64,000 nt of DNA, taken from NCBI RefSeq assembly GCF_009931435.1, contig NZ_CP043414.1; one strand, 5' to 3'. Positions within the stretch are counted from its first letter, which is position 1, and the number at the start of each line of letters is the position of its first letter. Shown piece after piece: positions 8,346 to 54,481 of this stretch. Below the pieces are notes generated by a model. It worked only from the letters and a program-made list of their open reading frames with translations, made no database searches and had not been told where the DNA came from. This stretch comes from Escherichia coli. GTDB taxonomy: Bacteria > Pseudomonadota > Gammaproteobacteria > Enterobacterales > Enterobacteriaceae. Both the position numbers and the translations under genes were made by a program.

Positions 8346-8361
8346 TTAAAAGGCAGGAACC

Positions 8362-26808: not shown

Positions 26809-26837
26809 GTACTTCTTACCCAATCAGGTGCACGGAC

Positions 26838-27915: not shown

Positions 27916-27960
27916 GAAACCATAGTGATGTTTTTTGACAATGTCTTAGCTCTTTATCAA

Positions 27961-28200: not shown

Positions 28201-28287
28201 TATGAAGCAATGCACATGACAGGAGCGCAACAGGATGAGAGACTGAAATATTCTCGTTATTTTCGGATCTGATGACGTTAATTAATT

Positions 28288-28371
28288 TTAAAATATCATC
28301 TTAAATACGCCAGTCACCACCAGTAGTCCAATCAGGAAAATAATCAATACAGCCCAGAGTATAATTTTCAT
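28288..28371 (-). CDS. yohP: Small membrane protein YohP (27 aa, MKIILWAVLIIFLIGLLVVTGVFKMIF)
   Basis: Hand-translated minus-strand ORF identical to my recollection of YohP; single transmembrane helix. Confidence 0.7.
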   Translation of the reverse strand: MKIILWAVLIIFLIGLLVVTGVFKMIF

Positions 28372-28594
28372 TGGCGTTCCTTTATTTGTGAGTGTCGAAT
28401 AAGTATAGGAAAAAACGAAGCCCTTTGCCGTTACTCATAAGTGATTAAGATAAATCGGAGAATATCATTCACTTACTGTATATTTTTCTGAATATGTCGT
28501 TTTATTGCCACTGATGTATTGCCACGCGAAACTAAAAAATATATTGCATCACACGGTAATCTCCGCGCACCTTTTCTTACCTGACTATTCCTCC

Positions 28595-30031: not shown

Positions 30032-30083
30032 TGATATGCGCCTTCTATACTTAACGTTTATTCAGCGTTAAGTGGAGAACTCG

Positions 30084-30845
30084 ATGGCACAGGTCGCGAT
30101 TATTACCGCTTCCGATTCGGGGATCGGCAAAGAGTGCGCGTTATTACTGGCGCAGCAGGGTTTTGATATTGGTATTACCTGGCACTCAGATGAAGAAGGG
30201 GCAAAAGATACCGCGCGTGAGGTGGTTAGCCACGGCGTACGTGCGGAGATGGTGCAGCTCGATCTCGGTAAACTGCCAGAGGGGGCACTGGCGCTGGAGA
30301 AACTTATTCAACGGCTGGGGCGCATCGATGTGCTCGTGAATAATGCGGGCACAATGACCAAAGCACCGTTTCTTGATATGGCTTTCGATGAGTGGCGCAA
30401 GATTTTTACCGTTGATGTTGATGGTGCATTTTTATGCTCGCAAATTGCGGCCCGCCAGATGGTGAAACAAGGGCAGGGCGGTCGCATCATCAACATTACG
30501 TCGGTACATGAGCATACGCCGCTGCCGGATGCCAGCGCCTATACAGCCGCTAAACATGCACTCGGTGGGCTAACCAAAGCGATGGCGCTGGAGCTGGTCA
30601 GGCATAAGATTTTGGTGAATGCAGTCGCGCCTGGGGCTATCGCCACGCCAATGAATGGCATGGATGACGGCGACGTGAAGCCCGACGAGGAGCCTTCGAT
30701 TCCCCTGCGGCGTTTCGGCGCAACGCATGAGATTGCCAGCCTGGTGGCGTGGTTATGCTCTGAAGGCGCAAATTACACCACCGGGCAGTCGTTAATTGTC
30801 GATGGTGGCTTTATGCTGGCGAATCCGCAGTTCAACCCAGAATAG
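30084..30845 (+). CDS. yohF: Short-chain dehydrogenase/reductase YohF
   Basis: N-terminus MAQVAIITASDSGIGKE (Rossmann TASxxGIG) and NNAG motif. Confidence 0.9.
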   Translation: MAQVAIITASDSGIGKECALLLAQQGFDIGITWHSDEEGAKDTAREVVSHGVRAEMVQLDLGKLPEGALALEKLIQRLGRIDVLVNNAGTMTKAPFLDMAFDEWRKIFTVDVDGAFLCSQIAARQMVKQGQGGRIINITSVHEHTPLPDASAYTAAKHALGGLTKAMALELVRHKILVNAVAPGAIATPMNGMDDGDVKPDEEPSIPLRRFGATHEIASLVAWLCSEGANYTTGQSLIVDGGFMLANPQFNPE

Positions 30846-30886
30846 CGCAGTGAGGTGCGTGGTTGTTTCAATGGGTAATCTTTGGT

Positions 30887-30966
30887 AGGCATGATAAGAC
30901 GTGCAAGCGTCGCATCAGGCATGGTGCGACGGATGTCGGATGCGGCGCAAACGCCTTATTCTAGGC
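30887..30966. repeat. BIME/REP cluster
   Basis: Multiple gcatcaggc/ggatgcggcg REP cores between convergent yohF and yohD. Confidence 0.5.
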
Positions 30967-30973
30967 AATGGTT

Positions 30974-31552
30974 TTACGCCTGATCATCCGGCTTTTTCTT
31001 CCCGCGTCGTTTCAGCCACCAGCGCACGCCAACCACCAGAACCACGACCAGAATCAACCAGACCCAGTGCTTCAAATGCTGGTCGAGATTGTGCAACCAC
31101 GGCGCAATCACCTGACCACCAGCATAACCGATAGTGGTAAAAATCAACGCCCAGGCAAATGCGCCGAGAATATTCAGCGGCAGAAAGATTTTCGGCGGCA
31201 GCTGGCTGGCACCAATCAGCGTCGGGCCAATGACCCGAAAGCCATACATAAAACGCGTACCAATGACAAACAGATACGGATGGCGTTGGATAAGTTTCTG
31301 CGCCCGCTCAATTTTATCCTGATGTTTCGAGAAACGGCGTAATAGCTTGCCGCCAAAGCGCCGCCCGCACAGATAAAGCACCTGGTCGCCAATCATGCCG
31401 CCAAGCGCCACAGAAAGTACCACCAGCGGGAACTTTAATAGTCCCTGATGTGCCGCAACGCCTCCCAGCAAAGTCACGGTTTCACCTTCCGCCAGGCTAC
31501 CGATCACCAGCGCGGCATAACCATATTGTGAGATGAGTGTATTGAGATCCAT
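30974..31552 (-). CDS. yohD: DedA-family inner membrane protein YohD
   Basis: 192-aa product starting MDLNTLISQYGYAALVIGSLAEGE. Confidence 0.9.
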   Translation of the reverse strand: MDLNTLISQYGYAALVIGSLAEGETVTLLGGVAAHQGLLKFPLVVLSVALGGMIGDQVLYLCGRRFGGKLLRRFSKHQDKIERAQKLIQRHPYLFVIGTRFMYGFRVIGPTLIGASQLPPKIFLPLNILGAFAWALIFTTIGYAGGQVIAPWLHNLDQHLKHWVWLILVVVLVVGVRWWLKRRGKKKPDDQA

Positions 31553-31721
31553 AGGCCCGTCTGTCTCCCTTTGGTTGCTTGTAAGCATACACCCTGTGAA
31601 TCATTCACGCTGAAAAAGGACGCTCATCAGACGGTGCAAATTCTATGAATGCACAAAAAATAATCACAAGCTGACTTATACTTGAACTGTCAGGTTCATG
31701 AACTCACAACAAGGGGGCGGT

Positions 31722-32309
31722 ATGAGCCATGTCTGGGGACTGTTTTCCCATCCCGATCGTGAAATGCAGGTGATTAATCGCGAAAACGAAACGATTTCTC
31801 ATCACTACACCCACCACGTTTTGCTGATGGCGGCAATTCCGGTGATTTGCGCCTTCATTGGCACCACGCAAATTGGCTGGAATTTTGGCGATGGCACTAT
31901 CCTGAAGTTATCCTGGTTCACCGGACTGGCGCTGGCCGTCTTGTTTTATGGCGTTATGCTGGCTGGGGTCGCGGTGATGGGGCGGGTCATTTGGTGGATG
32001 GCACGCAATTACCCGCAGCGTCCGTCGCTTGCGCACTGTATGGTCTTCGCGGGCTACGTTGCGACGCCGCTGTTTTTAAGCGGTCTGGTGGCGCTTTACC
32101 CGCTGGTCTGGTTGTGTGCGCTGGTCGGCACGGTGGCGCTGTTTTACACCGGCTACCTGCTTTACCTCGGTATTCCAAGCTTCCTGAATATCAACAAAGA
32201 GGAAGGCCTTAGCTTCTCCAGTTCGACGCTGGCGATTGGCGTGCTGGTACTGGAAGTGCTGCTCGCCCTTACCGTTATACTATGGGGTTACGGTTATCGT
32301 TTGTTCTAG
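31722..32309 (+). CDS. yohC: Yip1-family inner membrane protein YohC
   Basis: 195-aa product starting MSHVWGLFSHPDREMQ. Confidence 0.85.
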   Translation: MSHVWGLFSHPDREMQVINRENETISHHYTHHVLLMAAIPVICAFIGTTQIGWNFGDGTILKLSWFTGLALAVLFYGVMLAGVAVMGRVIWWMARNYPQRPSLAHCMVFAGYVATPLFLSGLVALYPLVWLCALVGTVALFYTGYLLYLGIPSFLNINKEEGLSFSSSTLAIGVLVLEVLLALTVILWGYGYRLF

Positions 32310-32482
32310 AAAGTTCTTTTGTGTTGCATTGCTGGCGTAAATGTCAGCAATGCAGCATTTCCTCACGATTCTCCTTTGACGATCGCACTTTTTGCTCGTT
32401 ATGATGGCGTCGCTAGCCTCAGTAAATCCTTACTCCGGCGGTGCGCAACCCGTGCGCGTGAACCACTATCTGAATGCTCATC

Positions 32483-33415
32483 ATGCCGAAATTTCGAGTT
32501 TCTTTATTTAGCCTGGCCCTGATGCTGGCTGTGCCTTTTGCACCACAGGCCGTTGCGAAAACGGCAGCCGCTACCACCGCTTCACAGCCGGAAATTGCCT
32601 CCGGTAGCGCGATGATTGTTGATCTGAATACCAACAAAGTGATCTATTCGAACCACCCGGATTTGGTGCGTCCGATTGCGTCTATCAGTAAATTAATGAC
32701 CGCGATGGTTGTGCTGGATGCACGATTGCCGCTGGATGAAAAACTGAAAGTGGATATCAGCCAGACGCCGGAGATGAAAGGGGTCTATTCGCGCGTACGA
32801 CTGAACAGCGAAATCAGCCGTAAAGAGATGCTGTTGCTGGCGCTGATGTCTTCAGAAAACCGCGCGGCGGCAAGCCTTGCGCACCATTATCCCGGTGGTT
32901 ACAAAGCCTTTATTAAGGCGATGAATGCGAAAGCGAAATCGCTCGGAATGAACAACACGCGCTTTGTTGAACCGACCGGATTGTCGGTGCATAACGTTTC
33001 AACTGCCCGTGACTTAACCAAACTGCTCATTGCCAGCAAACAATATCCGTTGATTGGTCAGTTAAGTACTACCAGGGAAGATATGGCAACCTTCTCTAAC
33101 CCGACGTATACGCTGCCGTTCCGCAATACTAACCATCTGGTGTATCGCGATAACTGGAATATTCAGTTAACCAAAACCGGCTTTACCAATGCGGCGGGCC
33201 ATTGTCTGGTGATGCGTACGGTTATCAATAATAAACCGGTGGCGCTGGTAGTGATGGATGCGTTTGGCAAATATACCCATTTTGCCGATGCCAGCCGCCT
33301 GCGTACCTGGATTGAAACCGGTAAAGTGATGCCTGTTCCGGCAGCAGCGTTGAGCTATAAAAAACAAAAAGCCGCCCAGATGGCGGCGGCGGGGCAGACG
33401 GCGCAGAACGATTAA
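32483..33415 (+). CDS. pbpG: D-alanyl-D-alanine endopeptidase PBP7
   Basis: Signal peptide [25 protein letters not shown]; SISKLMT (SxxK) active-site motif. Confidence 0.9.
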
Positions 33416-33416
33416 G

Positions 33417-33590
33417 GGTAGGCAGGATAAGGCGTTTACGCCGCATCAGGCATTCGGAGCACAATGCCTGATGCGATGCTTGCGCATCTTATCAGGCCTA
33501 CAAACGTGACGCGTCCGTAGGCAGGATAAGGCGTTCACGCCGCATCCGGCATTCGGTGCACGATGCCTGATGCGATGCTTCTATTTGCAT
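33417..33590. repeat. BIME: at least three REP units
   Basis: Repeated ggataaggcgtt(t/c)acgccgcatc and gcctgatgcgatgct cores seen directly. Confidence 0.6.
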
Positions 33591-33607
33591 CAGACATCCA
33601 GCCGTAT

Positions 33608-35323
33608 TTACTCCACTTCCTGCCAGTTTTTCCGCTTACTGGTTTTACCGATCCCCGGATTCATGCTGTTGGTCGGATCGTTCTCGCGATAGAACTTCTG
33701 CAACGTCTCCGGTGCTTTATACAAATGACCGACGTTATGCTCGGCAGGGTATTGCGCGCCGCGCTGCTGTAGCAGTTCCAGCATCTGTTCTTTCAACGCA
33801 TGCACATCCACGCCTTTTTTAACGATGTAATCCTGATGGAAGACATAGCACATAAAATGGCCGTAATAGAGCTTGTGCACCAACTGACTGTCGATCTCCG
33901 GCGGTAAATGCTCATACCATTCGGTGTCGTTACGCCGCAGAGCGATATCCAGCGCCAGAATGTCTTCGACTTCATCGGAATGCACGGCCTGATAACGAAT
34001 TGCTGCGCCCGCAGCGGCGAAACGGTGTAAAAACGCTTTGCTGCCTTCCTCCGGCGTACAGACAAAGAAATCGCCCTCGGCCTGTTTGAAATAATCCACC
34101 AGCCACGATTTAGCTTCGCCGACGCCATCGCCCGCCATTTTTAACAGCAGATGATGTTCATATTTATCGCGCCAGCTTTTCATACGCGGTGGTAAATGGC
34201 TGGGGAACAGGTGACCGAATTTTTGCATCGCACGGTCGGTAAAATGCGGACGGAAGAATTTCACTTTCTCCAGCATCGCATCGGTGCGTCCCTTGAGATT
34301 AAAGAAGAACGGCATCTTGTCGGTGCCTAACTTATCAATCATCAGGAAGGTGTCTTTGCCGTATTTTTCCGCGATATCGTAGATATCCCGGTGCATATAT
34401 TCCCCGGCAACCGGCAGGTTCTCGAAATTAGCCAGGATATGGCGGCGGATTTCGGTCAGTACTTCCGGCTGGTTGGTGCCGATATAAAACACCTGCTGAT
34501 TTTTTTCTGCTTCGAAGGTATCAAGACGTACCGCAAAGACGGCCAGTTTACCGGCGCAACCGGAGGATTCAAACAGGCGATCCGGGTCGGCGTTATAACG
34601 TGCGGGTGTGTCGGCTTCAATATCACGAACGCGGTGGACATAGTCATAATCGTGGGCGTGACGACCATCGTGGCGCACATCGTCATCTTTGATGCGATCG
34701 TCATCCAGCTTGCTAAGGATCTGCTCCGGCGTTTCGCCGAGATCAATCCCCAGATGGTTCACCAGCGTCAGTTTGCCGTCTTCATTTATACGCGCGAATA
34801 ACGACATTTCGGTATACGCCGGGCCACGCTGCACCAGCGAGCCGCCGGAGTTGTTACAAATACCGCCGATGACCGATGCGCCTATACACGATGAGCCAAT
34901 CACCGAGTGCGGTTCGCGTCCCAGCGGTTTGAGGGCTTTTTCCAGCGAATAAAGCGTGGTGCCCGGATAGGCCAGCACCTGTTCGCCCTTGCCAAGAACG
35001 TGCAGCTTGTCGAGACGCAGGGTGCTGATGATCACGATATCGCGATCATAGTCGTTACCGTTTGGCGTCGAGCCTTCGGTCAGACCTGTATTGGCAGCCT
35101 GCATCAGAATAATTTTGTCGGCGGTGACGCAGGCTTTCAGCACCCGCCACAATTCCAGTAGTGAGCCAGGGAAAACGACAGCCAGCGCGTCGCCCTGACC
35201 AGAACGGAAGCCCTTGCGATAGCGGGCCGTTTTTGCGGGATCGGTGAGCAGGTGTGAATGACCGACCAGACGGGCAAGTTCATTCAAAAAGGCTTTATTA
35301 TCAGTTGTTGTCATGGAAGACAT
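33608..35323 (-). CDS. dld: FAD-dependent respiratory D-lactate dehydrogenase
   Basis: 571-aa product starting MSSMTTTDNKAFLNELARLVG; matches recalled Dld. Confidence 0.95.
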   Translation of the reverse strand: MSSMTTTDNKAFLNELARLVGHSHLLTDPAKTARYRKGFRSGQGDALAVVFPGSLLELWRVLKACVTADKIILMQAANTGLTEGSTPNGNDYDRDIVIISTLRLDKLHVLGKGEQVLAYPGTTLYSLEKALKPLGREPHSVIGSSCIGASVIGGICNNSGGSLVQRGPAYTEMSLFARINEDGKLTLVNHLGIDLGETPEQILSKLDDDRIKDDDVRHDGRHAHDYDYVHRVRDIEADTPARYNADPDRLFESSGCAGKLAVFAVRLDTFEAEKNQQVFYIGTNQPEVLTEIRRHILANFENLPVAGEYMHRDIYDIAEKYGKDTFLMIDKLGTDKMPFFFNLKGRTDAMLEKVKFFRPHFTDRAMQKFGHLFPSHLPPRMKSWRDKYEHHLLLKMAGDGVGEAKSWLVDYFKQAEGDFFVCTPEEGSKAFLHRFAAAGAAIRYQAVHSDEVEDILALDIALRRNDTEWYEHLPPEIDSQLVHKLYYGHFMCYVFHQDYIVKKGVDVHALKEQMLELLQQRGAQYPAEHNVGHLYKAPETLQKFYRENDPTNSMNPGIGKTSKRKNWQEVE

Positions 35324-42925: not shown

Positions 42926-44611
42926 ATGTACGATTTTAATCTGGTGTTGCTGCTGCTTCAGCAGATGTGCGTTTTTTTAGTCATTGCGTGGTTAATGAGT
43001 AAAACGCCATTATTCATACCGTTAATGCAGGTCACGGTTCGTCTGCCGCATAAATTTCTCTGCTACATCGTCTTTTCCATTTTCTGCATCATGGGCACCT
43101 GGTTTGGGCTGCATATTGACGATTCTATTGCCAATACCCGTGCGATAGGCGCGGTAATGGGCGGCTTACTCGGCGGTCCGGTCGTCGGTGGGCTGGTTGG
43201 TCTGACCGGCGGGTTACATCGATATTCGATGGGGGGCATGACCGCGCTAAGTTGCATGATCTCGACCATCGTTGAAGGATTGCTCGGCGGCCTGGTACAC
43301 AGCATCCTGATCCGTCGCGGGCGCACTGATAAAGTCTTTAACCCCATTACCGCCGGTGCCGTCACGTTCGTCGCTGAAATGGTGCAAATGTTGATCATCC
43401 TGGCGATCGCCCGACCTTATGAAGATGCGGTGCGTCTGGTGAGTAATATTGCTGCGCCAATGATGGTCACCAATACCGTCGGCGCGGCGCTGTTTATGCG
43501 TATATTGCTCGATAAACGCGCGATGTTTGAAAAATACACTTCGGCTTTTTCTGCTACTGCGCTGAAAGTGGCTGCCTCGACGGAAGGCATTTTGCGCCAG
43601 GGGTTTAACGAAGTGAACAGCATGAAAGTGGCACAGGTGCTGTATCAGGAGCTGGATATTGGTGCAGTCGCGATTACCGATCGAGAGAAATTGCTGGCCT
43701 TTACCGGAATTGGTGACGACCACCATTTACCCGGCAAACCGATTTCTTCGACTTATACCTTAAAAGCGATTGAAACCGGTGAAGTGGTCTACGCCGATGG
43801 CAACGAAGTGCCTTACCGTTGCTCGTTGCATCCGCAATGCAAACTGGGTTCGACGCTGGTGATTCCGTTGCGTGGTGAAAATCAGCGGGTGATGGGCACC
43901 ATCAAATTGTATGAAGCCAAAAACCGTTTGTTCAGTTCAATCAATCGCACGCTGGGCGAGGGGATTGCGCAATTGCTTTCGGCGCAGATTCTCGCTGGGC
44001 AATATGAGCGGCAAAAAGCGATGCTCACCCAGTCAGAGATCAAACTACTTCACGCCCAGGTGAACCCCCATTTTCTGTTCAATGCGCTTAACACCATTAA
44101 AGCGGTGATCCGCCGCGACAGCGAACAGGCCAGTCAGCTGGTGCAGTATCTTTCCACTTTTTTCCGTAAAAACTTAAAGCGGCCTTCGGAGTTTGTTACT
44201 CTCGCCGACGAAATTGAACATGTGAATGCTTATCTGCAAATTGAAAAGGCGCGCTTCCAGTCGCGGTTGCAGGTCAACATTGCTATTCCGCAAGAATTAT
44301 CCCAGCAGCAATTGCCCGCGTTTACCCTGCAACCGATTGTGGAAAACGCTATTAAACATGGGACATCACAACTGCTCGATACAGGGCGAGTGGAAATCAG
44401 CGCCCGACGTGAGGGGCAACATTTGATGCTGGAGATCGAAGACAATGCTGGTTTGTATCAACCGGTAACCAATGCCAGTGGGCTGGGGATGAATCTGGTG
44501 GATAAGCGTTTACGTGAACGGTTTGGCGATGACTATGGGATAAGCGTCGCCTGTGAGCCTGATAGTTACACCCGAATAACGTTACGACTACCATGGAGGG
44601 ACGAGGCATGA
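42926..44611 (+). CDS. btsS: LytS-type sensor histidine kinase BtsS (YehU)
   Basis: 561-aa product; 5TM-LytS N-terminus, GAF-like region, HisKA_3 (HFLFNAL) and HATPase blocks. Confidence 0.9.
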
Positions 44612-45327
44612 TTAAAGTCTTAATTGTCGATGATGAGCCGTTAGCACGGGAGAACCTGCGCGTATTTTTGCAGGAGCAGAGTGATATTGAAATTGTCGGC
44701 GAGTGTTCAAACGCTGTAGAAGGGATCGGCGCGGTGCATAAACTGCGCCCGGACGTGCTGTTTCTTGATATCCAGATGCCGCGTATTAGCGGTCTGGAAA
44801 TGGTGGGGATGCTCGACCCGGAACATCGTCCGTATATCGTTTTTCTCACCGCGTTTGACGAATACGCCATTAAAGCCTTTGAAGAACATGCATTTGATTA
44901 TCTCCTGAAGCCAATTGATGAAGCGCGGCTGGAGAAAACGCTGGCGCGTTTGCGTCAGGAGCGCAGCAAGCAGGATGTTTCGCTGTTACCGGAAAATCAA
45001 CAGGCGCTGAAATTTATCCCTTGTACGGGGCATAGTCGGATTTATTTGCTGCAAATGAGAGATGTAGCATTTGTCAGCAGTCGGATGAGCGGTGTCTACG
45101 TTACCAGCCACGAAGGGAAAGAAGGTTTTACCGAACTGACTTTGCGCACCCTGGAGAGCCGTACACCACTACTGCGCTGCCATCGTCAGTACCTGGTTAA
45201 CCTCGCGCATTTACAGGAGATTCGTCTGGAAGATAACGGCCAGGCCGAGTTGATTTTACGTAATGGCTTAACTGTTCCGGTCAGCCGCCGCTATCTGAAA
45301 AGTTTAAAAGAGGCGATTGGCCTGTAA
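44608..45327 (+). CDS. btsR: LytTR-family response regulator BtsR (YehT)
   Basis: N-terminus [16 protein letters not shown]; 4-nt overlap with btsS. Confidence 0.9.
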
Positions 45328-45373
45328 AAGACTGCTAAAATGGTTTTTTGCCTCATCAACACCTGAAGGCCTC

Positions 45374-45844
45374 ATGCTAAGTAACGATATTCTGCGCAGC
45401 GTGCGCTACATTTTGAAAGCCAATAATAACGACCTGGTGCGCATTCTGGCGCTGGGTAATGTCGAAGCCACTGCGGAACAGATCGCCGTCTGGCTACGCA
45501 AAGAAGACGAAGAAGGGTTTCAGCGTTGTCCGGACATTGTTCTGTCTTCATTCCTGAATGGCCTGATTTATGAAAAACGTGGCAAGGATGAGTCAGCGCC
45601 GGCACTGGAGCCGGAACGTCGCATTAATAACAACATCGTGCTGAAAAAATTACGTATCGCGTTTTCGCTGAAAACTGATGATATTCTGGCGATCCTTACC
45701 GAACAGCAGTTCCGCGTTTCGATGCCGGAAATTACGGCGATGATGCGTGCACCGGATCATAAAAACTTCCGCGAATGCGGCGATCAATTTTTACGTTATT
45801 TTTTGCGTGGACTGGCAGCGCGCCAGCATGTGAAGAAAAGCTAA
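45374..45844 (+). CDS. yehS: DUF1456 protein YehS
   Basis: 156-aa product starting MLSNDILRSVRYILK. Confidence 0.8.
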   Translation: MLSNDILRSVRYILKANNNDLVRILALGNVEATAEQIAVWLRKEDEEGFQRCPDIVLSSFLNGLIYEKRGKDESAPALEPERRINNNIVLKKLRIAFSLKTDDILAILTEQQFRVSMPEITAMMRAPDHKNFRECGDQFLRYFLRGLAARQHVKKS

Positions 45845-45849
45845 GACGG

Positions 45850-45885
45850 GCATGGCGGCCATGCGAAAAACATGGCCGCCGACAG
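45850..45885. terminator. Bidirectional hairpin (ggcggccat-gcgaaaaac-atggccgcc) between convergent yehS and yehR
   Basis: 9-bp perfect stem seen in sequence. Confidence 0.45.
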
Positions 45886-45886
45886 A

Positions 45887-46348
45887 TTATTTCACTTCTT
45901 TAAAACCAGCGGCTTTCATCACCAGTTCCATTTGCGCCATAGTGATACCTTTTTTGGCATCTTCAGCAGAAACGTTGATACCTGAAATACCCTGCAGGGC
46001 TTTAAAATCAACTTTTTCCATATCGATAGTCACGTTTTCCTGAGCATAAGTATCGGTAAAGGTTAATTTTTCTTCAACGCCAGGGATGTTTTTATATTTG
46101 GCACTTAACGGCTCAAGTGTCTTGGCAGCATCTTCTTTGGTGGTTGCACCAATGGAAGCAAATTGAATTTTGGTTTCAGAAGATTGCTTAAGAACCTTGT
46201 CACCTTTGTAGACATAGGTAATAGCAATTTCAGTACCGTTCAGATTAGCGCTAAATTTCTTCGATTCTTCTTTGTCACCGCAGCCAGCAAGAGAGAAAAC
46301 CAGAACAGATGCAACAACAAGGGAAAACAGCTTATTGAAAGCCTTCAT
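45887..46348 (-). CDS. yehR: Lipoprotein YehR (DUF1307)
   Basis: Signal peptide plus lipobox MKAFNKLFSLVVASVLVFSLAGC. Confidence 0.85.
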   Translation of the reverse strand: MKAFNKLFSLVVASVLVFSLAGCGDKEESKKFSANLNGTEIAITYVYKGDKVLKQSSETKIQFASIGATTKEDAAKTLEPLSAKYKNIPGVEEKLTFTDTYAQENVTIDMEKVDFKALQGISGINVSAEDAKKGITMAQMELVMKAAGFKEVK

Positions 46349-46479
46349 GTAAAACTCCATTTTATTTAATCAAGGAACTGGTGACCACACCAGGGGCCAT
46401 ATAGGATATGCCTAATACCTTGGCGTGAGCAGTCCGGAACTGGAGTAGAACTCTTTGTAAAAAGCACTATTTGTTCTTG

Positions 46480-48471
46480 TTACTCAAGCAAGGTTAATAA
46501 TTGTTCGCAAAGCAAAACGCAGTTATTCATTGCTTCTCCCCGTGCCTCGCCTTCTGTATTACGAAATTGTCCCAACACATGTGCCAGCCGATAAAAACCC
46601 ATCGCGGTGAGTTCATTGACCAGCAACTCTGACTGACTAATGGCACTCTGTTCCTGATAGCGCCAGCCATTATGGAGCAGTTGAATAAGCAACGCCTGAC
46701 AGCGCATCAGTAACTGATGAGTGGTAGACGGTACAGGCAGAACGCTGGCAGAAGGTAGCGGTGTCACAGGCGCAGTTTCTGCGTCCAGTGCCCAGGCGCG
46801 GGTTTGCGTCATCATTACTCGTGGTTCCAGTGTCAATTGCCCCTCAGCAAAATTGATAAACCCAGAAACCAGACTAACGGGATCTTCTGTTTGTTGTAAT
46901 AGAGCTGCCATGCGTTCAACAGCAAAGGGCGCACTGGCTGAAGCTGGCAGTGATAACGTCAGCACATTATCTTCACCTTCGCCACTGATTACCTGCGCAT
47001 CCAGTGTCTGCCGACTGCTGTCCCAACCGAGTGAAATGCACTCTTCTACTGGCAGAATAAATAAGTTATCGACCTGGTTAAGCGGTCGTATGGCGGCTGG
47101 CGGACGTTGGCGTAAATATTCCCGCAAAGCCACAATGCCCGGCTGGCGCAGTGGTGCGCTCAACATTTGCCAGGCATCAGGCGACAGCGGAACAACACTG
47201 CTTAAGCGGTTGCGGGTAGCTAATAGCAACTCGCCATCGGCACTGCGTTTTGCTGCTTGTGAAACAATTTGCCCACCCGCCAGCGCGCCAGCCTGAAAAC
47301 TAAACAGCCGCCGTTTTGCCGCTGGAGAGTTATCCTGTTCACTTCTCGGCCAACTGCGCGAAAGATGCAAAATACTGCCGGTGTCGGGATCGGTGAACCA
47401 GATGCGTAAACCATACCGCTCATTATCCTGCCAGCAACGCATACCTAGTGACACCAGCCGCAAATGATCAAGCTTTGCTTCGCCAGCAATGCCTGCGCCA
47501 ACGACCGTGCGCCACGGTATGGGCGGTACTTCACCGACACTGTCACGTCGCGCTATCTCTTGTGCACTGTTCAAGCGACTGGTTAACGCCGCAAGCTGGC
47601 ACAAGCATTTTCCGGCATGATAGTGGCTGGCGCGGGCGTGGAAGGCATCAACGCTTGCCCGTAGCTGTCGTAGTGATTCACTTACCCAACGCCAGTTGCA
47701 GCGTTCCGCCGCTTGCTGCGCGCGGCTGAAAGCAGCCTCGTAATGAATAAGCGGCTGGCTGATCCCGCCCAGCCATAATGCCTGACTTAATTGCTGAACA
47801 TAGTGACGACATGCTTTACCTTCGTCGCTGGAAAACGGATCGTCAGATGATGTGACGTGTTCACTGTGCATCTGCCAGATCAAATGAGTAAATTCTGCTT
47901 GTTGATTTTTGGCCTCGACGAAGGCCTGCACAGCCAGTACTACGTGTTCACACAGCGTTCCTTCAATACAGTCACAACGGGCGAAACGAATGCTGCTGCG
48001 GGAATAAAAACGCACATCGCTCATCGGTAAGCGGGCAGAGGGAATTTCGCCCGGGGTGCAGAACAACTCAATGGTGATGCCTTTAGCGACCAGCGCCTGC
48101 GCGCGTTTGCGCGTGGTATTGGGCAGGGTAGCCAGTTCTTCCTGCCAGATTGCCGGATCCCACTCTTCTTCTTTTTCCGTAGGCTGGGCGGTGGCACAAA
48201 GTCGTTGATAACTTAACACCAGCATCACGCGATGACGGCACATGCCGCTGGCCCCGCAGCTGCATTGAGCCTCTTTCAGTGCCTGACTGTTCGCCAGCCG
48301 GGTACGGACACCGTCACTGAACGTGGCGATTAAAGCGCCGTTCTCATGGCAGATTTCCGGGACATTGCCATTTTCCAGTTCCTTAAGGCTGCGCTTCACA
48401 AAACCAGCATTGCTTAACGCCGTCAGGGCCTGCGGTGTCAGTTCTAATAATTCCGGACGTAGTGAATTCAT
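46480..48471 (-). CDS. yehQ: YehQ: protein with two SWIM-type zinc fingers (CxC-x5-C-x-H)
   Basis: Motifs CSCGASGMCRH and CDCIEGTLCEH seen in the translation; ATG overlaps the yehP stop. Confidence 0.8.
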   Translation of the reverse strand: MNSLRPELLELTPQALTALSNAGFVKRSLKELENGNVPEICHENGALIATFSDGVRTRLANSQALKEAQCSCGASGMCRHRVMLVLSYQRLCATAQPTEKEEEWDPAIWQEELATLPNTTRKRAQALVAKGITIELFCTPGEIPSARLPMSDVRFYSRSSIRFARCDCIEGTLCEHVVLAVQAFVEAKNQQAEFTHLIWQMHSEHVTSSDDPFSSDEGKACRHYVQQLSQALWLGGISQPLIHYEAAFSRAQQAAERCNWRWVSESLRQLRASVDAFHARASHYHAGKCLCQLAALTSRLNSAQEIARRDSVGEVPPIPWRTVVGAGIAGEAKLDHLRLVSLGMRCWQDNERYGLRIWFTDPDTGSILHLSRSWPRSEQDNSPAAKRRLFSFQAGALAGGQIVSQAAKRSADGELLLATRNRLSSVVPLSPDAWQMLSAPLRQPGIVALREYLRQRPPAAIRPLNQVDNLFILPVEECISLGWDSSRQTLDAQVISGEGEDNVLTLSLPASASAPFAVERMAALLQQTEDPVSLVSGFINFAEGQLTLEPRVMMTQTRAWALDAETAPVTPLPSASVLPVPSTTHQLLMRCQALLIQLLHNGWRYQEQSAISQSELLVNELTAMGFYRLAHVLGQFRNTEGEARGEAMNNCVLLCEQLLTLLE

Positions 48472-49604
48472 GACTGAAGATTCTCCGCAAGCCAGGTCGC
48501 CAGTTCGCCTGGCGTCATCGCGGCTATTTGTGCGCCGACATTTACCAGCGCCTGGGCTGTATCGCGGTCGTAGCAAGGTGTTGCGGTGCTATCGAGCGCT
48601 GCCAGTCCCAGCACTTTGATGCCGCTCTGGACACACTTTTTCACCTGATGCGTCAGCAATGATGATGAACCCCCTTCATAGAAATCGCTCACGAGGATAA
48701 TGACGCTTTTCGCTGGTTGTTCAATAAGTTGCCGACCATACTCCACGGCACTGGCGATATTGGTCCCGCCGCCCAGTTGTACTTTCATTAATAACTCTAC
48801 CGGATCAGCAACGTCTGCCGTGAGATCAACGACGCTGGTGTCAAAAGCGACCAGATGGGTGCGGATACCGGGTAACTGCCATAAACAGGCCGCCATCACC
48901 GCTGAGTGGATCACCGAATCGACCATTGATCCGCTTTGATCAACCAGTAACACCAGCTGCCATTGTTCGCTATGGCGTTTAATTCGGCTGTTAAAGCGGG
49001 GGGATTCGATATACAACTTGCCGTGTTGCGGGTGCCAGTGTTGCAGGTTGGCGCGCAGAGTACTTTTGAAATCGAAATTACGCGCCAGTGGAATAAATGA
49101 GCGGCGACGGCGATCGCGTACACCTGAAAAAGCCTGACGAACTTCCTTTGCCAGTCGCGCCATAATTTCTTCAACAACCTGGCGCACTATCCGGCGGGCG
49201 GCAGCCAGCACTTCGGGATTCATCAGATGTTTGGTGTGCAAAACGGCGCGTAGCAGGCTTTCAGAGGGCTGCATACGTTCCAGCACGTCGAGATTCGTCA
49301 CCACATCTTCAATGCCGTAGCGCAGTACGGCATCGCTTTCCAGCCGCTCAATCACCTGTTGCGGGAACAGCGTGTGAATACTGTTGATCCAATCAGGGGT
49401 GGTGAGATTTGAGCCACCTAATCCACCGGAGCGTTCACCACGCTGGAGCCGTTCAGGGTCGCGCCCGTACAGCCACTCCAGCGCGTGGTCTATCCGCCGG
49501 GCGTTGTCATCCAGCCCACAAAGCGTCGTTTCTGCCGCTTCGCCAAGAATTAATCGCCAGCGTTGTAGCTCACGAGTGGTCAGAAGATCGTTCAGTTCAG
49601 ACAT
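48468..49604 (-). CDS. yehP: YehP: von Willebrand factor A (vWA) domain protein
   Basis: 378-aa product from MSELNDLL; MIDAS motif DQSGSMVDS; overlaps yehM by 8 nt. Confidence 0.85.
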   Translation of the reverse strand: MSELNDLLTTRELQRWRLILGEAAETTLCGLDDNARRIDHALEWLYGRDPERLQRGERSGGLGGSNLTTPDWINSIHTLFPQQVIERLESDAVLRYGIEDVVTNLDVLERMQPSESLLRAVLHTKHLMNPEVLAAARRIVRQVVEEIMARLAKEVRQAFSGVRDRRRRSFIPLARNFDFKSTLRANLQHWHPQHGKLYIESPRFNSRIKRHSEQWQLVLLVDQSGSMVDSVIHSAVMAACLWQLPGIRTHLVAFDTSVVDLTADVADPVELLMKVQLGGGTNIASAVEYGRQLIEQPAKSVIILVSDFYEGGSSSLLTHQVKKCVQSGIKVLGLAALDSTATPCYDRDTAQALVNVGAQIAAMTPGELATWLAENLQS

Positions 49605-51876
49605 GGAAAACTCCCCAGTGTTGCAGTGATGCCAGTGCCTGCTGTTCGAGTTGTTGATGATGTGCAATGGCTTGCGGTGGGCAATGCAACGGCATTTGCA
49701 GCGCCGAAACGGGAAGCTGAGCGAGCTGGTAATGCTCAAGCACCTGATGCGCCAGCGTCCCGCGTTCTCGTGGCGGTAGCCAGGCCATCGCCGCGCGCAA
49801 ATCGGGCAGGGCGTTAATAAAATCGGCGTCACTCAGTTGATTCAAATGGCTGCTGAAACCGGCGATAAATGCAGGCTGACTGGCCAGTTGATGGCGGGCT
49901 AATGCCAGCAAACCGTGCAGCGCCTCGCCAGATTGTGCCGGGGATAATTGTGCCAGCATCGTCAGCGCCGCTTCGGCACTGGCGTTGGGATGTTCCAGAC
50001 GCATCAGCGCGCCAAGGGCCGCACCGCGATCCAGCGCTGGGGCATGAATCGCCTGACTGCGACGTTCCAGTAAGGCTACCGCCGCAGAAAGCGAAACGCC
50101 GGGTAAATTAACGCCGCTATTTAGATCGCGCAGGATATGGCAAAGCGCCTGCCAGCTATGCAGGTGAGCGTGAAACTCCTTCTCATCCGGCCTGCCGTTG
50201 GATTCACATAGCCACAGTGTGCGATCGATAGCCGCGTATAACGTCGTCTGTAATATCTGCGCGCCTTGCATACCGCTGATTTCATCGAGCTGCCACAAGG
50301 CGTAAAGCACTTCCAGCGCCTGGCCCATTTCGGCAAACTGATTTTCCTGGGCGATTAATAATGTGAGTTGTTCCAGTAATTGCTGACTGAAGGACGCCAG
50401 ACCCGCTAACGCTGCCTGGCTAAGACATGTGGTGATGCCGCTGATTCCACCCGCGTCCAGCATATCGGCTTCTAATTTATTGCGTGCGGCCTCCTGGAGT
50501 GTGGCACCAAAGCAGGCGGCTTCAATCAATGCCGCATGTTGGCTAAGTGGCTGGGTTAATGTCCAGCGTTCTTCACCGTTGCCCGCCAGCGTCAGTGTAC
50601 TTCCGTGCTGGCGCACAATGCCGGGAATCTCCAGTATTGCCAACCGATGTAGCACCTGACTTTGCGCCAGTCCATCGGGGGTAAAGCGATTTAAGGTAAG
50701 CTCCGCCGGAAGAGAGATTCCGGTACGTTCCAGTTCGCAGGTGACATCTTTTGGCAGAGGTGGCTGTGGCGTCGAGGGGGCAAGTTTACCGAATCCGTCA
50801 CCTGCTAATGTGTCTATCAACGTTACCAGTATCGGATCGGTATCGGGATGAATAACGCCGCGATAGCTCCACGGCAACGGCGCGTTCAGGGCTTCTTTGA
50901 TCAGCGAGCCTGCTATAGCATCCAGCCAGTCAGTGCGTAACGGTAGTGTATGACCGCGCAACTGTGCCAGTGCCATCGCATGCAGATGAGCGGCAGCCAT
51001 ATCCGCTGTTGAAGCAGGCAAGTGGTGCTGGCGCAAACGGGTAAGAACCGTTTTTAGTAGTTGTTCACCTGCCTGCTGCAAGCCCCACCGCCAGCACCAG
51101 TTTTGCCAGACCGGGGCAGGCATTCCTGAAAGGTATCCTGCCAGCACATCAAGGCGCTTTTCACTGTATGGCGTGAGATAGCAACCTGTAACGGCATCAT
51201 CCTGTGAGAGCAATTCTGGCTTGTTAATTTCTTGCGGGCATTCGCGCCACATTTTTGCAAGTGCCGGAGCGTGCCAGCCTCCGCAGACGACTAATACGTC
51301 GCCATTATTTTGCTGCATCGCCCATGCAATCCAGCGGGCCATAAAGGCTTCGCGCTGACGATTGAGTGCATCGCCGGAGGCGTCGCCCCGCAGTTGTGCA
51401 AAATAGTGCGCCAGTGCAGAGGGTAATATAGTTTGCTGGCTTTCATCTTCGAACAGGTGATCCCACAGAGTGTCGCTGTTATCCATACGAGTGGCACGCA
51501 GCAACAAAGCCTGGCTTTCCTCTTGCGTACCGGGTGACTCGTCCTCTTCTTCACTCTGCGCCCAGCAAGGCAAATCGATGAAGTAAGTTTGTGCCTGAAT
51601 ACGACGTGCGGCTTGTAGCGCCTGCCACTCCGGCGAAAATTCAGCAAATGGCGTCCAGGCACCACGCCCGGGGGCCGCACCGTCCTGATACTGGCAATAA
51701 CTGTAAATAGCTACCGGAAGCTGGTGGGCTAACAACAGTTCGTCTACCCGGTCATTAAAATCAGCCGGGCCTTCAATCAACACGTATCGTGGCCGCTGGC
51801 TTTCGATTAACGATTTCACCAGCCGGGCGCAGGCCGGACTATGATGCCGGATGCCGACAATTAACGGCTCGCTCAT
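49597..51876 (-). CDS. yehM: YehM: large protein of unknown function
   Basis: 759-aa product from MSEPLIVGIRHH; no recognisable catalytic motif by eye. Confidence 0.8.
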   Translation of the reverse strand: MSEPLIVGIRHHSPACARLVKSLIESQRPRYVLIEGPADFNDRVDELLLAHQLPVAIYSYCQYQDGAAPGRGAWTPFAEFSPEWQALQAARRIQAQTYFIDLPCWAQSEEEDESPGTQEESQALLLRATRMDNSDTLWDHLFEDESQQTILPSALAHYFAQLRGDASGDALNRQREAFMARWIAWAMQQNNGDVLVVCGGWHAPALAKMWRECPQEINKPELLSQDDAVTGCYLTPYSEKRLDVLAGYLSGMPAPVWQNWCWRWGLQQAGEQLLKTVLTRLRQHHLPASTADMAAAHLHAMALAQLRGHTLPLRTDWLDAIAGSLIKEALNAPLPWSYRGVIHPDTDPILVTLIDTLAGDGFGKLAPSTPQPPLPKDVTCELERTGISLPAELTLNRFTPDGLAQSQVLHRLAILEIPGIVRQHGSTLTLAGNGEERWTLTQPLSQHAALIEAACFGATLQEAARNKLEADMLDAGGISGITTCLSQAALAGLASFSQQLLEQLTLLIAQENQFAEMGQALEVLYALWQLDEISGMQGAQILQTTLYAAIDRTLWLCESNGRPDEKEFHAHLHSWQALCHILRDLNSGVNLPGVSLSAAVALLERRSQAIHAPALDRGAALGALMRLEHPNASAEAALTMLAQLSPAQSGEALHGLLALARHQLASQPAFIAGFSSHLNQLSDADFINALPDLRAAMAWLPPRERGTLAHQVLEHYQLAQLPVSALQMPLHCPPQAIAHHQQLEQQALASLQHWGVFHV

Positions 51877-51886
51877 GCATCTTTCC

Positions 51887-52975
51887 TCACGGCAGGCGGT
51901 GGCGAGCTTGATAATAAGCCTGCCAGTGAGCTTCTTTATGTGTAGCGACACGTTGTTCGAAGTAACGGCGCAGACGTGCGCGATCTTCTTCGTTATCTTT
52001 GACGATGGTTCCGGCAATACAGTCCACCAGGTCGGCTGGCTCCCCCGCGCGATTCGCTAAAAACCAGGCGCGGACGCCCACGGCGTGGGCCACGTTAACG
52101 GCTTCAGCGGTGGACATAATCGCTGTAAAGGTATCCATTGAGGTTTTCTTTTCGCCGTTGGCACGCAGATCGCGGAAGGTGCGGACCAGTAACTCCAGTA
52201 CCGCGTCAGGCACTTTATGCGGAATGCCACTATGGGCCAATAAACGCGCCGAAGCACTGGCGACCAGTTCCAGTTCCTGGGCGAAATCCATAATCGGAAA
52301 GACAGTTTCAAAATCGAATCGACGTTTTAGTGCCGCGCTCATTTCATTAACGCCGCGATCGCGGGTATTGGCAGTGGCAATAATATTAAAGCCTTCTCGC
52401 GCATAGAGCTGACTGGCTTCACCAGTGAGTTCCGGCACCGTCATAACCCTGTCAGAAAGCATACCTAACAGACAGTCTTGTACTTCCAGTGGTGTACGCG
52501 TTATCTCTTCAAAACGGACAATTTTGCCGTCGCGCATTCCCTGGTAGAGCGGGGCAGGGACCAGCGCTTCCGTTGACGGACCATGATTAATAAGCAGGGC
52601 GTAGTTCCAGCCGTACTTGATTTGATCTTCGGTGGTAGATGCGCCGCCCTGGATAGTTAACCCAGCATCGCCGCTAATAGCGGTTGCCAGTAATTCAGAC
52701 AGGAGCGATTTTGCGGTGCCTGGTTCCCCCACCAACATCAAACCGCGCCCGGTAGCAAGAGTGACTAACATGCGTTCGACAGCGGAGGGACTAATCACGA
52801 CTTTACGGCTGATATTTTGCGCGCTATCGCCAAGAATAAAAGAACGGGCCGCAGGCAAACTTAACTGCCAACCGGGCGGGCAAGGTGCGTGATCATTTTG
52901 TTTTAATTTTGCCAGTTCATCGGCGTATAACACAGCGGCAGGTGGACGCTGCAGATGATTATTCTGCGGTGACAT
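51887..52975 (-). CDS. yehL: YehL: MoxR-type AAA+ ATPase
   Basis: 362-aa product from MSPQNNHL; Walker A GEPGTAKS; first gene of the yehLMPQ operon. Confidence 0.85.
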   Translation of the reverse strand: MSPQNNHLQRPPAAVLYADELAKLKQNDHAPCPPGWQLSLPAARSFILGDSAQNISRKVVISPSAVERMLVTLATGRGLMLVGEPGTAKSLLSELLATAISGDAGLTIQGGASTTEDQIKYGWNYALLINHGPSTEALVPAPLYQGMRDGKIVRFEEITRTPLEVQDCLLGMLSDRVMTVPELTGEASQLYAREGFNIIATANTRDRGVNEMSAALKRRFDFETVFPIMDFAQELELVASASARLLAHSGIPHKVPDAVLELLVRTFRDLRANGEKKTSMDTFTAIMSTAEAVNVAHAVGVRAWFLANRAGEPADLVDCIAGTIVKDNEEDRARLRRYFEQRVATHKEAHWQAYYQARHRLP

Positions 52976-53086
52976 ATATTCATCCCTGAAATGTATTAAT
53001 GAAATAAAAGATATTTTACGCGCAATAAATGTTTGGCGCATTAGTTGTTTGAGCGGAAAATATCTGGAAAGCAGATCACAGTAAAT

Positions 53087-53169
53087 AAAAAAACCTGCTG
53101 GTGAGGCAGGTTCTTTTATTTACTACTTTCAGGCCTAACACCACGGCCTGTGCAACATCGTGTTCCAAC
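53087..53169 (-). ncRNA. orzO: Predicted antitoxin sRNA (OrzO-like), about 83 nt
   Basis: Minus-strand -10 TATAAT at 53176-53181 and -35 TTGCAA at 53199-53204; intrinsic terminator hairpin plus U7 at 53087-53111; 5' region (53151-53169) is near-complementary to the zorO 5' UTR (53317-53335). Boundaries inferred. Confidence 0.4.
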
Positions 53170-53175
53170 GAACGA

Positions 53176-53226
53176 ATTATAACCACCGCTGGACCCCGTT
53201 GCAATTAAGATAATGAGATTTATAAT
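53176..53226. promoter_or_regulatory. Back-to-back divergent sigma70 promoters sharing a palindromic -35 TTGCAA (53199-53204): rightward -10 TATAAT 53221-53226 (zorO), leftward -10 53176-53181 (orzO)
   Basis: Spacers of 16 and 17 bp seen directly; predicted zorO transcription start near 53234 gives a 174-nt leader. Confidence 0.5.
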
Positions 53227-53407
53227 CCTGACAGTTGGGAGGTTGCGCCGGATCGAACCAATTTCAAGTCCTGGCTACCGGACGGGTGGTGCTGCAGGTG
53301 GTGCCCTGATCCGGAGTGCAACATCGTGGTCCAACATACGTAAACCAGTATCGACAGGCAGTGTAAGGGTAAGGTGCTGGTGTTGCGCTCCTTAATAAGG
53401 AGAGCGG

Positions 53408-53497
53408 ATGGACACGCTGACACAAAAGTTAACCGTGCTCATTGCCGTACTGGAGTTATTAGTGGCTCTGTTACGGTTGATTGATTTGTTGAAGTAA
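53408..53497 (+). CDS. zorO: Type I toxin, 29-aa hydrophobic peptide MDTLTQKLTVLIAVLELLVALLRLIDLLK (ZorO-like, Ldr-related)
   Basis: Hand-translated small ORF with a single transmembrane helix, long structured leader and intrinsic terminator; matches my recollection of ZorO. Confidence 0.7.
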   Translation: MDTLTQKLTVLIAVLELLVALLRLIDLLK

Positions 53498-53518
53498 CGG
53501 GCAAATTGAAACGCATCT

Positions 53519-53550
53519 AAGGGGGAAAATACCGCTTCCCCCTTTAATAA
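53519..53550 (+). terminator. Intrinsic terminator of zorO (aagggggaa-aataccgc-ttccccctt + T-rich)
   Basis: 9-bp G/C-rich stem seen in sequence. Confidence 0.6.
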
Positions 53551-53683
53551 AATGATTACTGTTTTTAATAATTCATCATATAACTCATTTTTATTTATAA
53601 ATTCATCGATTTTATATTCAACGCACCATTTGACCGGGATGTAAATATTTATGGTGGGCTATTGGCAAAAAATATCTGGAAAG

Positions 53684-53779
53684 TAGATCGCAGAAAATAA
53701 AAGAACCTGCTGGTGAGGCAGGTTCTTTTATTTACTACAGTGACGCTAACTTGCTGATTGTGCAACATTTCGTACCAAC
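53684..53779 (-). ncRNA. orzP: Predicted antitoxin sRNA, second copy (OrzP-like)
   Basis: Same architecture as copy 1: -10 at 53786-53791, shared -35 at 53809-53814, terminator hairpin 53694-53714; pairing region 53762-53779 matches the zorP leader 53928-53945. Confidence 0.4.
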
Positions 53780-53785
53780 GAATAA

Positions 53786-53836
53786 ATTATAACCATATCC
53801 ACACTCCATTGCAATTCAGTGAATGAGATTTATAAT
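53786..53836. promoter_or_regulatory. Divergent promoter pair of copy 2 (shared -35 TTGCAA 53809-53814; -10 elements 53831-53836 and 53786-53791)
   Basis: Identical geometry to copy 1. Confidence 0.5.
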
Positions 53837-54017
53837 CCTGCCCGTTGGGAGGTTGTGCCGGATCGGACCAATTTTAAGTCCTGGCTGCCGGACGGGTGGT
53901 GCCGCAGGCGGTGCCCTGATCCGGAGAGCAACGTTTCGTACCAACATACGTAAACCAGTATCGACAGGCAGTGTAAGGGTAAGGTGCTGGTGTTGCGCTC
54001 CTTAATAAGGAGAGCGG

Positions 54018-54107
54018 ATGGACACGCTGACACAAAAGTTAACCGTGCTCATTGCTGTACTGGAGCTATTAGTGGCTCTGTTACGGTTGATTGATTTGTT
54101 GAAGTAA
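54018..54107 (+). CDS. zorP: Type I toxin, second copy; identical 29-aa peptide with synonymous changes (ZorP-like)
   Basis: Hand-translated; 174-nt leader from the predicted transcription start near 53844. Confidence 0.7.
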   Translation: MDTLTQKLTVLIAVLELLVALLRLIDLLK

Positions 54108-54128
54108 CGGGCAAATTGAAACGCATCT

Positions 54129-54160
54129 AAGGGGGAATACCGTTTCCCCCTTTAATAAAG
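54129..54160. terminator. Bidirectional hairpin terminator (aagggggaa...ttccccctt) between zorP and convergent yehK
   Basis: Stem-loop seen in sequence, flanked by T-rich tracts on both strands. Confidence 0.55.
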
Positions 54161-54481
54161 CTATTTTTCTATTTGTTGGATGAATATATTTTGTAGTTCA
54201 CGATTAAAAATTGCTATTACAGTTTTAGGTGATTCACCTCGTAATTTACGCTCATCAATAAATTCATCTCTTATATAAATCAACGCATCATTTATTAGCG
54301 GGTCGACATCTTCTCGATCACGTTGATGAAATGTTGGATGTAGCCGGAATCGCTCCAACCGGTAGACGGAACCAGTAAATAATTCAGAGCGTTTATGGAC
54401 CTCAAGTCTGAAGGAAAACGGATCTTCAGGTACAGGGTCCTCATAATCGTAAATAGCGACCAGCTCTTTTTGCACGATCAT
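54161..54481 (-). CDS. yehK: Small hypothetical protein (106 aa), probably YehK
   Basis: ORF at the position expected for yehK between yehL and yehI; identity by synteny and size only. Confidence 0.55.
   Translation of the reverse strand: MIVQKELVAIYDYEDPVPEDPFSFRLEVHKRSELFTGSVYRLERFRLHPTFHQRDREDVDPLINDALIYIRDEFIDERKLRGESPKTVIAIFNRELQNIFIQQIEK

Follow-up and report, generated by a model that had tools for sequence, protein, structure and literature searches.

Fozo et al. [quoted passage not shown] These zor-orz pairs represent a textbook-grade case of paralogous RNA antitoxins that escape cross-talk by means of a few covarying bases; experiments made this point in 2014 (PMC3919570), and more than 2,000 genomes were surveyed for the system in 2024 (PMC11264685). 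In EDL933, overexpression of zorO is toxic and OrzO rescues from this toxicity; repression by OrzO depends on RNase III when the toxin is strongly induced, is independent of Hfq, and can be brought about by the first 18 nt of OrzO (PMC3919570). The same work defined V1 as positions +9 to +11 of the sRNA, which are GAA in OrzO and ACG in OrzP (Wen, Won and Fozo, PMC3919570). In contrast to OrzO, OrzP leaves zorO unrepressed; specificity follows V1 when V1 is swapped, and compensatory mutations in V1 of zorO restore repression (PMC3919570). The published pairing requirement is 15 contiguous pairs or, for discontinuous pairing, a minimum of 17 pairs interrupted by a single internal mismatch (PMC3919570, PMC11264685). 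As for the toxin transcript, the zorO mRNA is translated better in the form without its first 28 nt, and OrzO also stops translation by occupying the leader region termed EAP (Wen, Harp and Fozo 2017, PMC5397157). In the searchable literature, direct tests of this kind concern zorO/OrzO only, and none was found of zorP toxicity, of the action of OrzP on zorP, or of that of OrzO on zorP.

A two-copy locus between yehL and yehK

The window, i.e., the whole 64-kb stretch of E. coli DNA analyzed here, contains between positions 53057 and 54159 what is almost certainly the two-copy version of zor-orz, a chromosomal type I toxin-antitoxin locus of E. coli. The initial annotation had named the zorO-orzO/zorP-orzP system for this region, and matches to the Rfam family RF02083, the exact ZORO_ECO57 peptide, the position between yehL and yehK, and the V1 triplets all agree with that assignment. 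The zor-orz identification is correct, and the locus, the V1 insulation logic, the variants, and the K-12 remnant have all been published already (PMC3919570, PMC5397157, PMC11264685). That a type I pair, its sRNAs, and their pairing sites were recognizable from the raw sequence alone makes the locus a positive control.

A repeat search of the window revealed two direct-repeat units with a start-to-start spacing of 608 to 612 nt, and pairwise alignment delineated within them a conserved block of ~495 nt (53057-53551 in copy 1 and 53669-54159 in copy 2), in which an sRNA-like segment is followed by a promoter region, a long leader, a 29-codon open reading frame (ORF), and a 3' hairpin. The block of copy 1 is followed by a spacer of ~120 nt; the 490-bp unit that had been proposed initially holds as the conserved block (~490 to 510 bp) but not as the repeat period, which is ~610 bp. 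Copy 1 is flanked by yehL (51887-53041, minus strand) and copy 2 by yehK (54161-54481, minus strand), which is convergent with zorO, and the tandem position between yehK and yehL is evident both from the flanking ORFs in the window and from the annotated neighbors in matching RefSeq genomes. The intercopy spacer (53549-53668) contains a decayed yehK 3' end: its local alignment with 54156-54300 gave a score of 40, as against a maximum of 28 among shuffled sequences (0 of 500 as high), and a minus-strand frame of the spacer still reads IDEFI...KTVI, like the C terminus of YehK. This trace indicates that the original tandem unit of ~610 bp comprised orz, zor, and the 3' end of yehK. A search for further zor or orz copies elsewhere in the 64-kb window found none.

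With ACG as its V1 triplet, copy 1 is of the OrzP type, and with GAA, copy 2 is of the OrzO type. By their sequences, then, the P pair (orzP/zorP type) is copy 1, which adjoins yehL, and the O pair (orzO/zorO type) is copy 2, which adjoins yehK. The published gene order, in which z3289 is zorO and z3290 is zorP, fits a placement of O beside yehK and of P beside yehL.

The locus is present at a query coverage of at least 80% in 3389 of 5426 complete E. coli genomes, with a top identity of 98.2% among these 5,426 genomes. None of its four genes (two small ORFs and two sRNAs) is annotated in the RefSeq/PGAP records of the matching genomes, and such loci are consequently invisible in standard annotation. 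The adjoining yehL-yehQ segment (44000-53000) shows only 90 to 95% identity to 5,334 of 5,427 E. coli records; segments 2000-10000 and 26000-34000 show 95 to 99% identity to nearly all E. coli genomes. The latter values indicate that the window is ordinary DNA at the level of E. coli, in which the yeh haplotype is divergent. They also exclude a non-coli Escherichia host, which would have widened the host range, and this locus leaves the published range (E. coli and Shigella) as it stands.

Antitoxin genes and toxin transcripts

In both copies, the strand opposite the ORFs bears a match to RF02083 (the OrzO-P RNA antitoxin family) that covers the full model (positions 1 to 76), at 53087-53162 with 98.9 bits in copy 1 and at 53699-53772 with 87.3 bits in copy 2, the gathering score of the family being 60 bits. 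Subthreshold Rfam matches at the sRNA terminators (STnc370, the Thr/Trp leaders, and ncr1015) were rejected as being due to the common terminator hairpin. With the sRNA +1 set at the seventh nucleotide past TATAAT (53169 and 53779), the predicted genes are an orzP-type sRNA gene of 83 nt (53087-53169, minus strand) and an orzO-type sRNA gene of 81 nt (53699-53779, minus strand), both at the low end of the 80 to 95 nt that the initial annotation had anticipated. The 5' ends of these sRNAs are GUUGGAACACGAUG in copy 1, with ACG at +9 to +11, and GUUGGUACGAAAUG in copy 2, with GAA at the same positions, and in both copies the V1 triplet is matched by the cognate leader. Each is predicted to have little structure in its 5' region and to carry at its 3' end a terminator hairpin of 12 bp and a U run, with fold z scores of -2.7 for the orzP-type sRNA and -3.1 for the orzO-type sRNA.

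A consensus scan placed in each pair two divergent sigma-70-like promoters on one palindromic -35 hexamer, TTGCAA, with a spacer of 16 nt on the zor side and of 17 nt on the orz side. In copy 1, the orzP promoter (53176-53204, minus strand) consists of the -35 hexamer at 53204-53199 and a TATAAT -10 hexamer at 53181-53176, and the zorP promoter (53199-53226, plus strand) uses the same -35 hexamer together with a TATAAT at 53221-53226. In copy 2, the divergent promoters of orzO and zorO (53786-53836) meet on the -35 hexamer at 53809-53814, with their -10 hexamers at 53791-53786 on the minus strand and 53831-53836 on the plus strand. Each of the four predicted promoters agrees with the consensus at 10 of its 12 positions, and the TTGCAA/TATAAT hexamers have been reported to be shared by at least 99% of the loci surveyed (PMC11264685).

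On the basis of these promoters and the published numbering, the +1 of the toxin mRNAs was placed eight nucleotides past TATAAT, at 53234 and 53844. The predicted 5' untranslated regions are thereby 174 nt long, at 53234-53407 for the zorP type and at 53844-54017 for the zorO type (both plus strand), the latter including, by alignment and fold, the EAP region (+73 to +102) and a sequestered ribosome-binding site (RBS). With +1 so placed, AAGGAG lies at +164 to +169 (53397-53402 on the plus strand for zorP) and AUG at +175 in both copies, and the coordinates of the RBS and the AUG are identical in the published leader (PMC5397157). The 29-codon ORFs lie behind these 174-nt leaders as first described, at 53408-53497 for the toxin at the zorP position and at 54018-54107 for zorO (both plus strand), and the +1 placement is consistent with the published numbering. 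Both encode the 29-residue hydrophobic peptide MDTLTQKLTVLIAVLELLVALLRLIDLLK, which in an exact cluster look-up is identical to the UniProt entry "Small toxic protein ZorO," ZORO_ECO57; an NCBIfam scan of the 29-residue peptide retrieved no family. The observation that the two copies specify the same toxin is right for the window, with the correction that it is a trait of this strain; the ZorP of the EDL933 type has T3S. Beyond the ORFs, the zorP mRNA is predicted to end in a hairpin (GGGGGAA...TTCCCCC) with a T-rich tail (53520-53551, plus strand), which was recognized as a repeat family and as a terminal 9-bp hairpin in the minimum free energy (MFE) fold and was not called by a consensus terminator scan. 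The corresponding 3' hairpin and T-rich tail of zorO (54130-54159, plus strand), placed by the same repeat family and by folding, end 2 nt short of the stop codon of the convergent yehK (54161).

In the predicted MFE folds of both full-length mRNAs, +1 to +22 is paired with +74 to +102, and the RBS is buried in a hairpin with a mean P(unpaired) of 0.07, so that, as a prediction, both leaders combine an occluded target with a sequestered RBS. Removal of 28 nt from the 5' end raises the predicted accessibility of the target only modestly (mean P(unpaired) from ~0.35 to ~0.46); published support for the opening of the EAP region comes from lead and RNase probing (PMC5397157). [quoted passage not shown]

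These features can be combined with the published work into a mechanism in which each pair would be transcribed divergently from promoters with a common -35 element to give a toxin mRNA with a 174-nt leader, the 5' end of which would fold onto +74 to +102 while the Shine-Dalgarno sequence is held in a hairpin. As a result of this fold-back and of the sequestered Shine-Dalgarno sequence, the primary transcript would be poorly translated. Loss of the first 28 nt would uncover the EAP, a putative ribosome standby site, and the 29-residue inner-membrane toxin would then be made. The first 18 to 20 nt of the cognate Orz sRNA would pair with the 3' part of the EAP, and this pairing would block translation and lead to RNase III-dependent decay, with Hfq being dispensable. 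We infer that the P-type pair works like the O pair.

One might ask if the locus is rather a decaying, nonfunctional remnant of a duplication, as the decayed yehK fragment in the spacer and the loss of one or both toxin genes in many strains might suggest. We consider this barely credible, because each copy retains an intact ORF, RBS hairpin, pair of promoters, and sRNA terminator, and between the copies the ORFs and the proximal leaders (+103 to +174) are identical, save for two synonymous changes in the ORF.

Cognate pairing and probable insulation of the two pairs

The complementarity that the initial annotation had pointed out between each sRNA and its leader is exact in the strings given, with the correction that either cognate duplex contains one imperfection. 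In copy 1, GCAACATCGTGTTCCAAC (53152-53169) pairs with GCAACATCGTGGTCCAAC (53318-53335), within an OrzP target that extends over +83 to +102 of the zorP leader (53316-53335, plus strand); in copy 2, GCAACATTTCGTACCAAC (53762-53779) pairs with GCAACGTTTCGTACCAAC (53928-53945, plus strand), the OrzO target at +85 to +102 of the zorO leader. Both targets occupy the 3' portion of the EAP as published (+73 to +102) and lie ~62 nt upstream of the RBS. In the cognate duplex of copy 1, an A.G mismatch at sRNA +7 separates the first 6 pairs from 13 further pairs (19 in total); in that of copy 2, a U.G wobble at sRNA +13 lies between runs of 12 and 5 pairs (17 Watson-Crick pairs and one G.U pair). When the 18-mer seeds were searched against the 64-kb window with up to three mismatches, each recovered only its own gene and the cognate leader; the chance expectation is 0.05 to 0.11 matches, and 0 of 100 shuffles reached two.

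The seeds of the two sRNAs differ at +6, +9, +10, and +11, and all four of these differences are compensated in the cognate leaders, in keeping with the earlier proposal that leaders and sRNAs have changed in concert. In view of these differences at +6 and V1 and the compensating leader bases, each antitoxin is expected to act on the toxin mRNA of its own pair and to spare that of the other. Duplex prediction, which the initial annotation had suggested as a check, separates the combinations in the window, with -31.0 and -29.6 kcal/mol for the cognate duplexes versus -17.2 and -21.4 kcal/mol for the noncognate ones, which have at most 7 to 8 contiguous pairs. In a cross-matrix of 20-nt seeds and 22-nt targets from four alleles, the cognate values range from -29.6 to -31.0 kcal/mol and the noncognate values from -14.0 to -25.1 kcal/mol. 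Both cognate pairs pass the published pairing threshold and both noncognate pairs fail it. Owing to its internal A.G mismatch, the P-type duplex has a longest perfect run of 11 within the first 18 nt (13 in the full duplex), and it passes only under the published rule for discontinuous pairing (17 pairs or more, interrupted by one internal mismatch). For OrzP on the zorO leader, we counted 13 Watson-Crick pairs and 2 G.U pairs, i.e., 15 pairs, which agrees with the "15 nt" given in PMC3919570.

Insulation of the two pairs, as put forward in the initial annotation, is a published idea that has in part been shown experimentally, in that OrzP is inactive on zorO and a swap of V1 switches specificity (PMC3919570). 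An incomplete insulation can nevertheless be envisaged, in which OrzO partly represses the zorP-type mRNA or the reverse holds and the duplication provides redundancy or dosage. The noncognate seeds still form 13 Watson-Crick pairs and 1 to 2 G.U pairs with the predicted energies above, the toxins are identical here and offer no toxin-level reason for separate control, and the searchable literature covers only the direction of OrzP on zorO. Yet in that direction repression was absent in vivo and specificity was carried over by V1 swaps (PMC3919570), the contiguous noncognate pairing of at most 7 to 8 pairs falls far short of the published 15 (or 17 with one mismatch), and the covarying positions are the same in four alleles; taken together, these points make such leakage very unlikely. 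We accordingly favor full insulation of the two pairs, under which OrzO would probably not repress zorP.

The imperfections of the duplexes are the same in every sampled strain, by which we could rule out that the mismatch and the wobble are strain-specific decay. It is conceivable, if rather improbable, that these fixed imperfections (the +7 mismatch in the P and Q types and the U.G at +13 in the O type) have been selected and tune the strength of repression or RNase III cleavage differently in each paralog. Were this true, strains with identical toxins would control one toxin through two switches with different thresholds, which goes beyond simple redundancy.

Alleles, orphan antitoxins, and comparison with known systems

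Sampling of ten further loci uncovered a third allele, the Q type, with the seed GUUGAGAUGCC and a leader containing ...CAUGGCGACUCAAC, and a fourth variant in one locus (L010); the seeds and leaders of both vary in concert at the same sites as those of the P and O types. Three peptide variants were seen among the sampled loci, namely, T3S in L001, A20S in L007, and V14I in L008. In the published survey, the ZorO sequence accounts for 72.5% of all zor ORFs, and the main variants are ZorP, with T3S, and ZorQ, with A20S (PMC11264685). The OrzO seed of the window, its target, and the whole 174-nt zorO leader recur unchanged in L001 (strain ERL06-2442), where the copy 1 peptide carries the T3S change of the EDL933-type ZorP.

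A K-12-like locus in our sample (L003) retains an intact orzP, both promoters, and ~30 to 50 nt of the zorP leader, after which yehK-proximal sequence follows. The initial statement that the system is absent from K-12 therefore stands for the toxins but fails for the antitoxin, since K-12-like genomes keep an intact orzP. This remnant is the published orphan antitoxin OrzPmg, which is expressed in MG1655 (PMC11264685).

Orphans of this kind raise the alternative that the Orz sRNAs, and OrzP in particular, act mainly in some capacity other than as antitoxins, for instance, in trans regulation of other mRNAs, with the toxins being accessory. About 30% of E. coli genomes are orz-only, the P type makes up 96% of their orz loci, and an orphan orz is expressed in MG1655 (PMC11264685), to which may be added the preservation of orzP and of both promoters in L003. 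Against this, no noncognate seed target with up to three mismatches was found within the 64-kb window, the sole region searched, no second target is reported in the survey (PMC11264685), and the covariation of seeds and leaders shows selection on the antitoxin interaction. We regard such a main role as unlikely and retain the reading of both sRNAs as antitoxins of their cognate toxin mRNAs.

The closest relative of the locus in the window is the zor-orz locus of O157:H7 EDL933 (PMC3919570, PMC5397157), with which it shares the yehL-yehK site, the tandem order, the divergent promoters, membership of the sRNAs in RF02083, the V1 triplets, the 174-nt leader, the target and RBS positions, and the ZorO peptide. 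The two part ways at the zorP position, where the window encodes the ZorO peptide (T3) and EDL933 encodes a ZorP with T3S; in addition, a small number of substitutions occur in the bodies of the sRNAs, in a promoter spacer, and at synonymous sites of the ORF. The zorQ/orzQ pair (PMC11264685) has the same locus and architecture, and its seed, GTTGAGATGCC, covaries with the leader at the same positions. Whereas the window represents the P+O combination, the variants in the survey also include P+Q, O+Q, single-copy, and orz-only loci (PMC11264685). More distantly, the comparison system treated in PMC5397157 likewise employs a divergent sRNA that pairs far upstream of a sequestered RBS, a 5'-processed active mRNA, and control of the standby-site type. 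However, its toxin and sRNA sequences are unrelated to those of zor-orz, the Orz sRNAs use their extreme 5' ends for pairing, and, unlike for that system, no LexA control has been reported for zor.

Divergent promoters and pairing at the leader

Each zor-orz pair possesses a single palindromic -35 hexamer, TTGCAA (window 53199-53204 in the orzP/zorP-type copy 1 and 53809-53814 in the orzO/zorO-type copy 2), which is used in both directions and is thus common to the two divergent promoters, with a 16-nt spacer on the zor side and a 17-nt spacer on the orz side. Given that both promoters depend on this one hexamer, RNA polymerase binding for the toxin and for the antitoxin would be mutually exclusive at the site.

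The 5' end of the zor mRNA (GUUGGGAGGUUGC..., 53234-53255 and 53844-53865 on the plus strand) is similar to the GUUGG...GUUGC 5' end of the minus-strand sRNA (53169-53150 and 53779-53760). Leader region +74..+102 is the predicted pairing partner of the toxin mRNA's own 5' end, as it is of the sRNA. This similarity, together with the shared pairing region, suggests that the leader contains a cis mimic of the antitoxin, which would be lost once processing removes the leader's first 28 nt.

The cognate duplexes are themselves imperfect: the P type has an A.G mismatch at sRNA +7 (window 53163), the O type a U.G at +13 (window 53767), and the Q type, a third allele found in other strains, both a mismatch at +7 and a U.G at +8. 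These imperfections are fixed, showing no variation across the strains sampled (loci L001-L010).

Duplication unit and genomic setting

The spacer between the two copies (window 53549-53668) aligns with the 3' end of yehK with a score of 40 versus a shuffle maximum of 28, and its minus-strand frame reads IDEFI...KTVI. The spacer is thus a copied and subsequently decayed yehK 3' end, which identifies the original tandem duplication unit as ~610 bp comprising orz, zor, and the yehK 3' end.

Among 5,427 E. coli records, 5,334 share no more than 90-95% identity with the adjoining yehL-yehM-yehP-yehQ-btsR segment (window 44000-53000), and only 93 exceed 95%; other stretches of the window reach 95-99% identity to nearly all E. 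coli genomes. Judged by these identities, the yeh cluster is a divergent haplotype, possibly a recombined one.

Two further plus-strand Rfam matches lie above the gathering score, a Peptidase-S11 RNA motif near pbpG (32398-32478; 72.8 bits) and naRNA4/CssrE (33421-33498; 76.9 bits). An 8-kb query around them hit each E. coli genome at 9-47 places, a pattern compatible with a REP-type repeat.

Annotation and variants in other strains

In the matching E. coli loci L001-L010, PGAP annotates neither the zor ORFs nor the orz sRNAs, although Rfam has a family for the sRNAs and UniProt an entry for the toxin.

Among these loci, L007 (NZ_CP025920.1) has its copy-1 ORF shifted away from the +175 start expected for it, so that the leader exceeds 174 nt by ~11 nt, and its copy-2 toxin is of the ZorQ type (A20S); copy 1 of L008 carries V14I. 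The yehL-yehK intergenic region of the K-12-like genome NZ_CP137709.1 (L003, 1477-1782) lacks the toxin gene and retains a complete orzP, together with both promoters and the beginning of the zorP leader. This locus corresponds to OrzPmg, an already published orphan antitoxin.
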